IMG/VR virus record: IMGVR_UViG_3300046808_001035
DNA: 64,000 nucleotides
Reading direction: 5' to 3' (one strand)
Source of the DNA: a virus
Both the position numbers and the translations under genes were made by a program. The stretch's first letter is position 1, and every line of letters begins with the position of its first letter. Of this stretch, positions 37,120 through 39,572 are shown one piece after another. The notes below the pieces were generated by a model, which was not told the DNA's origin, made no database searches, and saw only the letters and a list, made by a program, of their open reading frames with translations.

Positions 37120-37543
37120 TTTGTGTTTTACTAAGTTCTTCTCGGGTTACGATTTCTTTCAATACTGATTGGTCATTCTCCCATGTTGAGTATGAAAACA
37201 CACCATGGTTTCTTGCTGCATAGATTACATTGTGCTTAAACCCTTGGAACAATGTATCTAGATCTAGATTACTAGGGTACGGAGAAAAGCTTGGGTGTGT
37301 GTGAAAGCTAGCACAGATCTCCCAACCTTCCTTATACCTGTCAAACAATAGCTTACCTAACTCTAGCTTATCTGCCTCATACAAACTTATTGCTGTGTGC
37401 GATCCTTTGTGTTTGTTTTTGATTTTTACAAACCGGTAATCATCTTTTCGAGCTAGTAGCACACCACCCTCTTCCTCAAGAGGGTGGTCGCACTGGTCTG
37501 CCGCATCAAGCACAGCTTTTGCGAATGCTGGTTTATCAAGCAT
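37112..37543 (-). CDS. JAB/JAMM (MPN+) metallo-isopeptidase
   Basis: EEGGVL glutamate plus FHTHPSFSPYPSNLD (HxHx7Sx2D); start trimmed to MLDKP. Confidence 0.9.
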   Translation of the reverse strand: MLDKPAFAKAVLDAADQCDHPLEEEGGVLLARKDDYRFVKIKNKHKGSHTAISLYEADKLELGKLLFDRYKEGWEICASFHTHPSFSPYPSNLDLDTLFQGFKHNVIYAARNHGVFSYSTWENDQSVLKEIVTREELSKTQNE

Positions 37544-39572
37544 TTGTTTTATTCGCGAGGGATGCAACAATACCAGCCACCAAACCATCAGCTTCACGCT
37601 CAGGTGTGTGTGCGTGTTCGTTCTCGTATTGAGGCTGCGCGGCTCCTCGAAGAGTACTTACACTAGACTGCAACACGCTGTCGTTTTTAAGTGTAAGTAA
37701 TCTGGTCGCCACGTCGTCATAGCCTGCACCGTCATAGTGTCTATCGTTCACAATACAGCGATACTGCTTTGTGTCAAAATCATATACCTTAGCGTTTTCA
37801 ATCACAATTGCGTATGTTCTCAGGCTGCCTGTAACCTTGTAGGCTCTTTTGCCTTTGAACTCGATGAGTTCAGCTCCTGTCATGGCTACAGCTGTGGCCA
37901 TGAACTCTTTCGATCGCTCGATAGCACTAAGCTTTTCAGTCTTTGCTACATCTAGTAGTGCACACAAGTCATCTTCAGTAATCAAGCACTTTTGCGTTAC
38001 TGTCTTAAAACCACTAGCGTTAGACTCTTCTTCTTTAAAAGTACAGCACTCAAGCAAAGCTTTAATTATTTGCTCCGCTCCCCATAGGTAGTTTCTATAC
38101 CCACTTCTATAACCGTTTGCTCTGGTAGAGTAGAAATACTGGTTGTCTGTTTTTTTGTTGACCGCCTCAGCTCGCTTAACTAGCCTTCCTAGGTGAACCT
38201 TTACAGAGCGCTCGGACGAAACCTCAAGCTTATAATCTCCTTCTTTATCCACAAAGAATTTTAACCTTGGTGCGTCTAGTGAAGGCTCAGGATTGCGATA
38301 TTCTGCACCAGTCATACTATGGTGTATTTTCAAGGCAAGTCCGTTAGCTATAACATCATGCATCTTTAGGCTTAGATTGGACGTAGCCTTTACAAACAGT
38401 CTATACTCTTCACTACTGTGATAGCAGCTTGCGCGATAAATCACTGTAGCAACCTCAGACTTATTAATACGTATGTCGTTAACAAAGCGTTGTCCGTTAT
38501 CGTTCAGAGCTGCTTTGATAGGTATACCATTAATCTTGATCTCTGCAGTATACACTTTACCGTCCAGGGGAGTTGTCATGGTGTCTAGCTGCGATTCAAT
38601 ATTTCTAGCGACAACATTACAAATAGTATAAATATCGAACTCACCATCAAAATTAAGATTTGTGTGAAGCAGCTCGAGCAGGTTATCGGCCTCGATGATC
38701 ACATTATCATATGCGACTCTATGCTTATAGAACTGAATGTTCTGTAGCATGGTGCCTTCTATATCACTATTGATGATCTTACTGATTACTACAAGAGTTG
38801 TATTTTTCTTGTAGTCTCTGTCTATGCACTCAGCCAGCTCTTTATACTTATCTTTATTCTCGGTAGTGAGATTTTTGATCATCTTGAGCTTTAAGAGCTC
38901 TGCGTCGTACTTGTTGATAAAGCACTCTTTAGTCAGGAATTTAACCAGAGAGGGCTGCAGCTTACACAACATAAAAACGTAAGCTGTATGCACGTCATAG
39001 CTATTAGAGGCAATGAATGTGCTTGTGTAAGAGGCGTCATCTTCGATATCAAGCAAATAAAAACCTGCGTCGAGATAGTCATACAAGGGCTCGTCTTCTC
39101 TAGCAATCAAGCTAATGATAGGCATGGATACGTCATCAGTGACGATTCGATAAGTGTTGTCACCCTCAACACACTCAATCGGGGCACTCGCTATGATTTT
39201 AGGCACATACTGAGGAGGAACTGACTCTGGAATAATTTTTAGTGTATTGAATAGTGTTGAATGCGCTTTGAGAATAACTCTTAGCGTCCTTTTATCGCTT
39301 CCGGACAAGTAGTCTGCAACCCGAACCAATTCATCGTGAGTTAAACCATCACACTTTAGGTGCAGCGTTCTAAAGTCTGCGATGACTTTAGAAAAGGCAT
39401 GCATTTTTTCTACAGACTCAAACTCAAGGTGCCTAAAGTCTATAAAATTAATCGGTGTGTAGTTCGGCCCCCAGCGCGAGTCTACACACACTTCAGCGTT
39501 CTTGAGATGCTTAGCAGCTTCATTAAACTGCTTGTTTATTAATTTATAGTCGTTTAATTGAAATGTGGCCAT
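37536..39572 (-). CDS. large uncharacterised protein of the Ubl operon; candidate E2-like C-terminal domain
   Basis: Start trimmed to MATFQ (678 aa); C-terminal V.GSLRTY.I...QYRCIV...D....LL...D segment. Confidence 0.6.
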   Translation of the reverse strand: MATFQLNDYKLINKQFNEAAKHLKNAEVCVDSRWGPNYTPINFIDFRHLEFESVEKMHAFSKVIADFRTLHLKCDGLTHDELVRVADYLSGSDKRTLRVILKAHSTLFNTLKIIPESVPPQYVPKIIASAPIECVEGDNTYRIVTDDVSMPIISLIAREDEPLYDYLDAGFYLLDIEDDASYTSTFIASNSYDVHTAYVFMLCKLQPSLVKFLTKECFINKYDAELLKLKMIKNLTTENKDKYKELAECIDRDYKKNTTLVVISKIINSDIEGTMLQNIQFYKHRVAYDNVIIEADNLLELLHTNLNFDGEFDIYTICNVVARNIESQLDTMTTPLDGKVYTAEIKINGIPIKAALNDNGQRFVNDIRINKSEVATVIYRASCYHSSEEYRLFVKATSNLSLKMHDVIANGLALKIHHSMTGAEYRNPEPSLDAPRLKFFVDKEGDYKLEVSSERSVKVHLGRLVKRAEAVNKKTDNQYFYSTRANGYRSGYRNYLWGAEQIIKALLECCTFKEEESNASGFKTVTQKCLITEDDLCALLDVAKTEKLSAIERSKEFMATAVAMTGAELIEFKGKRAYKVTGSLRTYAIVIENAKVYDFDTKQYRCIVNDRHYDGAGYDDVATRLLTLKNDSVLQSSVSTLRGAAQPQYENEHAHTPEREADGLVAGIVASLANKTNA

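Follow-up and report, generated by a model that had tools for sequence, protein, structure and literature searches.

The locus raises the question of which protein could carry a putative ubiquitin-like modifier (hereafter, the tag) in an uncultured phage. The window analyzed, a stretch of 64,000 nucleotides from the IMG/VR record IMGVR_UViG_3300046808_001035, is a phage-like replication region with almost every long ORF on the minus strand. Four genes on this strand are arranged in series. The first encodes a small tag protein, putatively of the ubiquitin-like/beta-grasp type (39633..39956, 107 aa), with a C-terminal GG followed by the five-residue extension DKQSL. The second encodes a 678-aa protein, here called X (37536..39572). 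The third and fourth genes specify a JAB/JAMM protease with an intact HxH-x7-S-x2-D motif (37112..37543, 143 aa; PF14464, E 2e-8) and a minimal ThiF/E1 adenylation enzyme (36529..37119, 196 aa; PF00899, E 5e-17), respectively. Overlaps of 8 nt were found at the X/JAB junction, where the JAB ATG lies over the X stop, and at the JAB/E1 junction. The operon adjoins a GP88 gene in the replication block. The close relatives of X were on viral contigs of 120-215 kb, and neither the GenBank (INPHARED) phage records nor the GTDB contigs, the latter searched with close-family patterns, contained a match to the X family. No recognizable E2 family was present among the scanned operon proteins.

The original prediction placed an E2-like domain at the C terminus of X, made of a helix, four short strands, the Cys-bearing segment QYRCIV and a second helix. 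AlphaFold2 returned the same elements, and all the motifs that had been quoted were located within residues ~539-678. The model has a helix at 533-565, followed by strands at 568-572, 575-581, 586-590 and 596-598, a two-residue strand (604-605) immediately preceding Cys606 (codon 37755..37757, minus strand) and, after a loop, a helix at 619-629. What had been read as the first helix of the domain is the terminal part of a 33-residue helix. Cys606 thus lies where the sheet is connected to helix 2 by a loop. The isolated C-terminal domain was modeled with a pLDDT of 88.8 and a pTM of 0.82, the loop after Cys606 being of low confidence (pLDDT 63-65).

The rest of the protein gave little to compare. 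No family was found for X in PHROGs, NCBIfam or PADLOC, and its N-terminal ~540 aa, which carry no family assignment, matched no fold or family. PDB sequence searches with three X alignments returned nothing beyond chance hits, one of them to an Ig-type YxC motif. P0126 proved to be a false positive of this Ig-repeat kind and was excluded. Foldseek searches of the PDB with the full-length and domain models gave nothing significant, and their frataxin/CyaY rows were rejected (E>0.1). The ESM Atlas held no usable match to residues 100-420, and the similarity of residues 317-384 to YkuJ (Z 5.3) was too weak for interpretation. A search for longer homologues listed no Pfam-annotated fusion of X to an E1, a JAB or a tag, which is weak evidence.

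The C-terminal domain is the best-conserved part of X, and here a relationship could be established. Residues 545-643 (37644..37940, minus strand) form a confidently predicted domain that is a distant relative of DUF7737 (PF24879), the C-terminal domain of DUF4132 proteins. The Pfam DUF7737 model was matched weakly by 63/63 close members (best E 5e-6). X itself scored 15.2-19.4 bits and a relative 22.1 bits, the Pfam gathering score being 27 bits. In HHalign, the phage family aligned with bacterial DUF7737 at 92.8% probability (E 4e-7), with Cys on Cys (YICIV on YLCIV), and the best named ESM Atlas neighbors of the domain model were DUF4132/DUF7737 proteins (TM 0.61-0.62). On this evidence, the resemblance to DUF4132 C termini, which the original prediction had pointed out, was right, although X lies below the Pfam cut-off. 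Phage X and the bacterial DUF4132 proteins can be aligned in this last domain alone; their N-terminal scaffolds are unrelated, and X has no match to PF13569 (DUF4132).

The invariance of the Cys, on which the proposed function depended, was examined at three depths. Cys606 was present in 66/66 close homologues, in 145/145 representatives obtained by clustering at 50% identity and in 107/107 full-length distant proteins. As an ascertainment control, we have replaced Cys606 by Ser, which cost just 5.3 bits and left 108 of the 145 hits above the list floor. Relatives lacking the Cys would hence have been findable, and neither chance nor the way of searching accounts for the invariance. A second residue, Asp631 (codon 37680..37682, minus strand; LxND motif after the last helix), was equally retained in the 145/145 representatives, and an Asp occupies the corresponding place in bacterial DUF7737.

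Whether the domain is a UBC was addressed by sequence and by structure. By sequence, the E2 membership put forward in the original prediction found no support. Neither UQ_con nor Prok-E2 matched the domain or appeared among the top Pfam families over 63 + 134 members, and the HPN motif was found in 0/134 members; the His of this motif is missing from some prokaryotic E2s as well (PMC1779556). HHalign of the X family against 27 bacterial UBCs gave a probability of 0.5% (E 0.12). That alignment placed Cys on Cys and the following helix on helix 2, with 3/60 block shuffles scoring equally. At the level of sequence, the domain is not demonstrably homologous to E2s.

The structural comparison was less one-sided. 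An exhaustive VIA-align search over 48,161 chains produced no Z >= 4, all values being within the noise of which the tool warns, and the UBC-type superpositions had an rmsd of about 3.5-5.5 A. Among the best 50 of the 48,161 rows, 24 were UBC/UEV/RWD chains, as read by eye from their titles, including BubB and Cap2. The Vps23 UEV was aligned in this search (Z 3.9, rmsd 4.2, 83 aligned), and further VIA-align comparisons gave a similar picture, for instance with UBE2S (Z 3.9, rmsd 3.6, 88 aligned). The aligned E2 ranges run from helix 1 to slightly beyond helix 2. Counted from what we take to be the catalytic Cys of UBE2S and UBE2E1, the aligned range ends at Cys+35 in both, as compared with Cys+36 in X, a figure that concerns range ends only. 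The domain shares with UBC/UEV/RWD proteins the order helix, meander, Cys loop and helix, the hydrophobic-Cys-hydrophobic pattern and a conserved Asp that opens the next helix (Cys+13 in 92/129); it differs from them in having one strand fewer and in lacking the HPN loop and the last helices. This evidence for a UBC-like topology, although weak, leans toward UBC. Either a UBC core reduced to helix 1, the sheet, the Cys hairpin and helix 2 or a convergent helix-meander-helix may underlie the domain, and we regard common descent with UBC as doubtful without considering it far-fetched. Co-folding of an E1 dimer with the C-terminal domain scored 0.00 with no controls folded, and counts neither way.

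The genomic linkage is the stronger part of the evidence for an E2-like working, as far as this can be judged from gene content. A tight linkage to the genes of a tag and an E1, in keeping with the original prediction, was borne out: X occupies the E2 slot of the operon, and 25 of the 27 distinct loci with enough flank encode tag, JAB and E1 together. The E1 was present in 27/27; one locus had no JAB, its tag ending at GG, and one had no detectable tag. The linkage persists in very distant relatives despite a shuffled gene order, and a Hydrothermarchaeota MAG contig carries X, a tag ending in AG and a ThiF. The partners themselves are conserved. In the tag protein, G14, H15, W39, G44 and the last G were invariant in 29 homologues, its match to ISG15 being non-significant (E 0.26). 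In the E1, Cys154 (codon 36658..36660, minus strand) was invariant over 36 sequences of 21-78% identity and, from knowledge of MoeB/E1, we take it to be at the crossover-loop catalytic Cys position.

Based on these data, our preferred reading is that Cys606 receives the tag as a thioester and that X thereby works in the manner of an E2, its fold being stripped-down or convergent; we would put its probability at roughly 55%. Ubl, JAB and ThiF proteins occur in sulfur pathways too. The GG protein might accordingly be a ThiS/MoaD/CysO-like carrier on which the E1 makes a thiocarboxylate and which the JAB trims or recycles, with Cys606 bearing a persulfide or acyl-persulfide in an enzyme that sulfurates DNA, tRNA or a cofactor. 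We consider such a sulfur relay unlikely. The published association of the three protein types with sulfur pathways (PMC1779556) and the position of the operon in a replication block beside the GP88 gene speak for it; GP88, however, is absent from the distant loci. The E1 contains neither a rhodanese nor Zn CxxC pairs, and no sulfur-donor gene was found among the called neighbors. Moreover, the best NCBIfam match of the E1 was the PRTRC ThiF (TIGR03736, E 5e-13; 49 vs a cut-off of 144.75 bits) and it matched the Cap2 E1 domain at E 2e-8. By sequence, its closest E1s are thus of the conjugation type (PRTRC ThiF and Cap2) rather than ThiF/MoeB.

The region between the tag gene and X bears on the same alternative. 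It contains a strong intrinsic-terminator-like element (39578..39616, minus strand), composed of a hairpin (39616-39588, 12 bp, 8 GC) and a T run. Of 31 distinct loci, 25 had a similar hairpin with T run behind the tag gene, compared with 0/41 after X, 3/37 after JAB and 2/37 after E1, these control positions being mostly coding sequence. Such an element behind the tag gene would yield more tag than enzymes, as expected for a modifier that is consumed, and tag production probably exceeds that of the enzymes. A raised tag level would suit a consumed modifier better than the recycled carrier of a sulfur relay.

The bacterial DUF7737 proteins provide a second setting for the Cys domain. A motif search was used to collect 120 bacterial loci, two of which were confirmed as DUF4132 + DUF7737. 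A set selected on this pattern forces the Cys and was left out of the Cys counts; Pfam-selected genomes, used instead, retained the DUF7737 Cys in 70/75 cases. In 55 of the 59 bacterial loci with enough upstream DNA, a homologous small gene lay on the same tile, mostly abutting the DUF7737 gene, and the product of 54 of these 55 genes ends in GG. Among the Pfam-selected genomes, a GG-ended gene precedes 14/17 Cys-bearing and 0/3 Cys-less DUF7737 copies (Fisher p 0.018, from a small and phylogenetically dependent sample). In one Cys-to-Ser copy, the end of the partner is capped (AG-SYW). Judging from these loci, the DUF7737 Cys and the reactive C terminus of its partner appear to be retained or lost together. 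HHalign of the phage against the bacterial GG proteins gave no significant alignment.

The C-terminal pattern of the bacterial GG partners is ThiS/MoaD-like, as judged by eye, and DUF4132 has been loosely tied to molybdopterin (10.1101/2021.07.07.451423), two observations that would suit sulfur transfer; in the same DUF4132 study, however, moeA/moeB expression was unchanged (10.1101/2021.07.07.451423). Profiles built from the phage enzymes revealed neither an E1 nor a JAB in the vicinity of bacterial DUF7737 genes, so that activation of the tag would there fall to a housekeeping ThiF/MoeB.

Tag and Cys domain recur together on large scaffolds that are unrelated to each other, namely phage X and bacterial DUF4132, and this fixed pairing would also be explained if the tag ended its course on X. 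The E1 would then modify Cys606 or a Lys close to it without an intermediary, and the tag would switch or store the activity of X instead of being handed on. E2-less modification of the SAMP/TtuB/Urm1 kind has precedent, being established for archaeal SAMPs and Thermus TtuB. Against this explanation, a Cys thioester is labile and poor as a permanent mark, and the terminator suggests that the tag outnumbers X. Transfer is also better suited by the weak UBC-like topology and by the E2 slot in the operon. All considered, we find it quite unlikely that the tag stops at X.

X has a second conserved cysteine outside the segment with which the original prediction dealt. Cys383 (codon 38424..38426, minus strand; RASC motif at the end of helix 371-383) is near-invariant, being present in 66/66 close homologues and in 103/107 full-length distant proteins. 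Its region is the sole part of X, besides the C-terminal domain, that can be aligned in the most distant relatives. Given this conservation, C383 also fits a thioester role, as a rival or a relay site. It might be the first acceptor from the E1, with Cys606 as the second in a HECT/RBR-like relay, or Cys606 might be structural. Yet C383 is gone from the most distant X members, e.g., P0181, P0187, P0190, P0199 and P0254, and at least five distant members without it keep C606; in two of these, P0190 and P0254, an E1 gene lies close by as well. In the last 520 aa of the bacterial DUF4132 proteins, a set chosen on that residue, the DUF7737 Cys is the only invariant cysteine. We judge a primary role of Cys383, or a structural one of Cys606, improbable.

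Returning to Cys606 as the thioester acceptor, a possible course of events can be proposed. The JAB would trim the DKQSL extension and expose Gly-Gly, as suggested by its intact motifs and by Bil biochemistry. The minimal E1 would then adenylate the tag and hold it as a thioester on Cys154, from where the tag would move to Cys606. Finally, it might be handed to a target, either from Cys606 itself or by way of Cys383. The choice of that target would conceivably fall to the N-terminal 540 aa, which the original prediction proposed as an E3-like adaptor.

A more general and more tentative proposal, for which the odds as a whole fall somewhat short of even, extends this scheme beyond the phage. 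DUF7737-like domains would be an undescribed E2-type class of thioester carriers, borne on large, unrelated, target-selecting scaffolds. The carrier module would be minimal or convergent UBC-like, and large phages and some archaeal contigs would combine it with a tag, an E1 and a JAB that they encode themselves. In bacteria, the module would be attached to DUF4132 proteins and work with a Gly-Gly partner, among other places in a DNA-damage-induced Deinococcus operon; the D. radiodurans genome matches PF24879, and DRA0166 is a DUF4132 protein. In the phage family, C383 might turn one chain into an E2-E3 relay.

If true, the presence in a phage of a complete set, acceptor included, would mean that phages use the same conjugation chemistry as bacteria. 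The characterized prokaryotic ubiquitin-like conjugation systems found in the literature (Bil, CBASS Cap2 and Bub) are bacterial and either defensive or uncharacterized in role. The same scheme would give a testable function to a widespread but unexplained group, the DUF7737/DUF4132 proteins; the literature search found no paper on DUF7737, the function of which is undescribed. Were the domain a UBC remnant, it would display the minimal core for thioester transfer, and were it not, it would represent a new carrier fold.

We have finally compared the phage operon with known systems, no description of it having been found in the literature searched, which included few subscription journals. E1 genes have been reported from an Asgard virus, where they were read as hijacking host systems (10.1101/2021.07.29.454249). 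The BilABCD gene order is Ubl-E2-DUB-E1 (10.1101/2023.09.26.559546), with which the order tag-X-JAB-E1 agrees provided that the tag is a Ubl and X the E2. The two also share a masked Gly end and a Cys in the E1 and in the product of the second gene, and BilB lacks the C-terminal helices of UBE2D2 (10.1101/2023.09.26.559546). However, BilABCD is a bacterial anti-phage defence with a small stand-alone E2 of UBC fold, whereas the present operon is phage-borne and its candidate acceptor forms one domain within the 678-aa X (X domain vs BilB, Z 2.3). Furthermore, the Bil E1 has an IAD-AAD-CYS architecture with structural Zn, and the phage E1 is a 196-aa single domain without CxxC pairs.

The likeness to Bub (PMC11601596) lies in a minimal adenylation-domain E1 with a crossover-loop nucleophile, in JAB processing, putative for the phage, and in a diverged E2, for which the X domain is the phage candidate (Z 2.8 with BubB). 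Bub relies on Tyr and Ser oxyesters, has BubAB, BubCD and BubBD fusions and includes BubE (DUF6527), whereas the phage operon has cysteines and separate genes, and no DUF6527 match was found among the scanned operon neighbors. The PRTRC system, or Aravind class 6d, combines Ubl, JAB and E1 with a His-less E2-like protein (PMC1779556). Apart from the ThiF, no PRTRC model was matched, and neither a PRTRC nor a Prok-E2 model matches X. By the features tested, the phage operon belongs to none of the three systems Bil, Bub and PRTRC.

For the domain itself, the parallel is with DUF7737, which has in common with the X domain the predicted fold, the Cys in register and an adjoining gene for a GG-ended partner. 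The two settings differ in that the phage operon contains E1 and JAB, none having been detected beside the bacterial genes, and in that X has no DUF4132 domain. On the present comparisons, the C-terminal domain of X is a distant DUF7737 relative, not filed as a UBC, which resides in a putative conjugation-type operon of uncultured large phages.

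The region between the tag gene, which encodes a small GG-containing protein, and the gene of X, the 678-aa operon protein, holds a terminator-like hairpin on the minus strand (window 39616-39578). The hairpin position was kept in 25 of 31 distinct related loci, with sequences that differed from one locus to another. The presence of such a structure after the tag gene suggests that output of the tag exceeds that of the enzymes. Two genes upstream of the tag lies a GP88 gene (PF17338, window 40922-41662), encoding a Cys-rich N-terminus, which is present in the close phage family and not in the distant loci.

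In the N-terminal part of X, the charged residues Arg142 and Asp168 (window 39147-39149 and 39069-39071, respectively) were invariant (107/107 distant homologues) and may form a binding or catalytic site. A Hydrothermarchaeota MAG contig (L179:940-3468) encodes an X of 538 aa that lacks C383, together with ThiF and a tag of ~66 aa ending in AG; no JAB gene was found on this contig.

Conserved genes are favoured sites of group I intron/homing endonuclease elements. In loci L025 (7471-9245) and L040, an insertion of ~1.2 kb splits the E1 gene once ~48 codons have been read. It harbours a 323-aa ORF whose product shows LAGLIDADG-like motifs, and probably represents a group I intron that carries a homing endonuclease. 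Some relatives carry a gene of ~225 codons between X and JAB (L001:6902-7597 and L003:7044-7718), absent in the window, whose product, inspected by eye, looks like a 3'-5' exonuclease.

A Bacteroidota DUF4132 protein (L261, G053:C23) has the DUF7737 Cys replaced by Ser, and its partner terminates in AG-SYW, not GG. The two proteins make up a naturally capped pair that is probably non-reactive. The UQ_con model matched in 33 of 251 sampled genomes of Planctomycetota, the phylum of an Isosphaeraceae MAG. In this set (L281-L310), used solely for comparison, 27 extracted matches displayed an HPN-type motif before the Cys.
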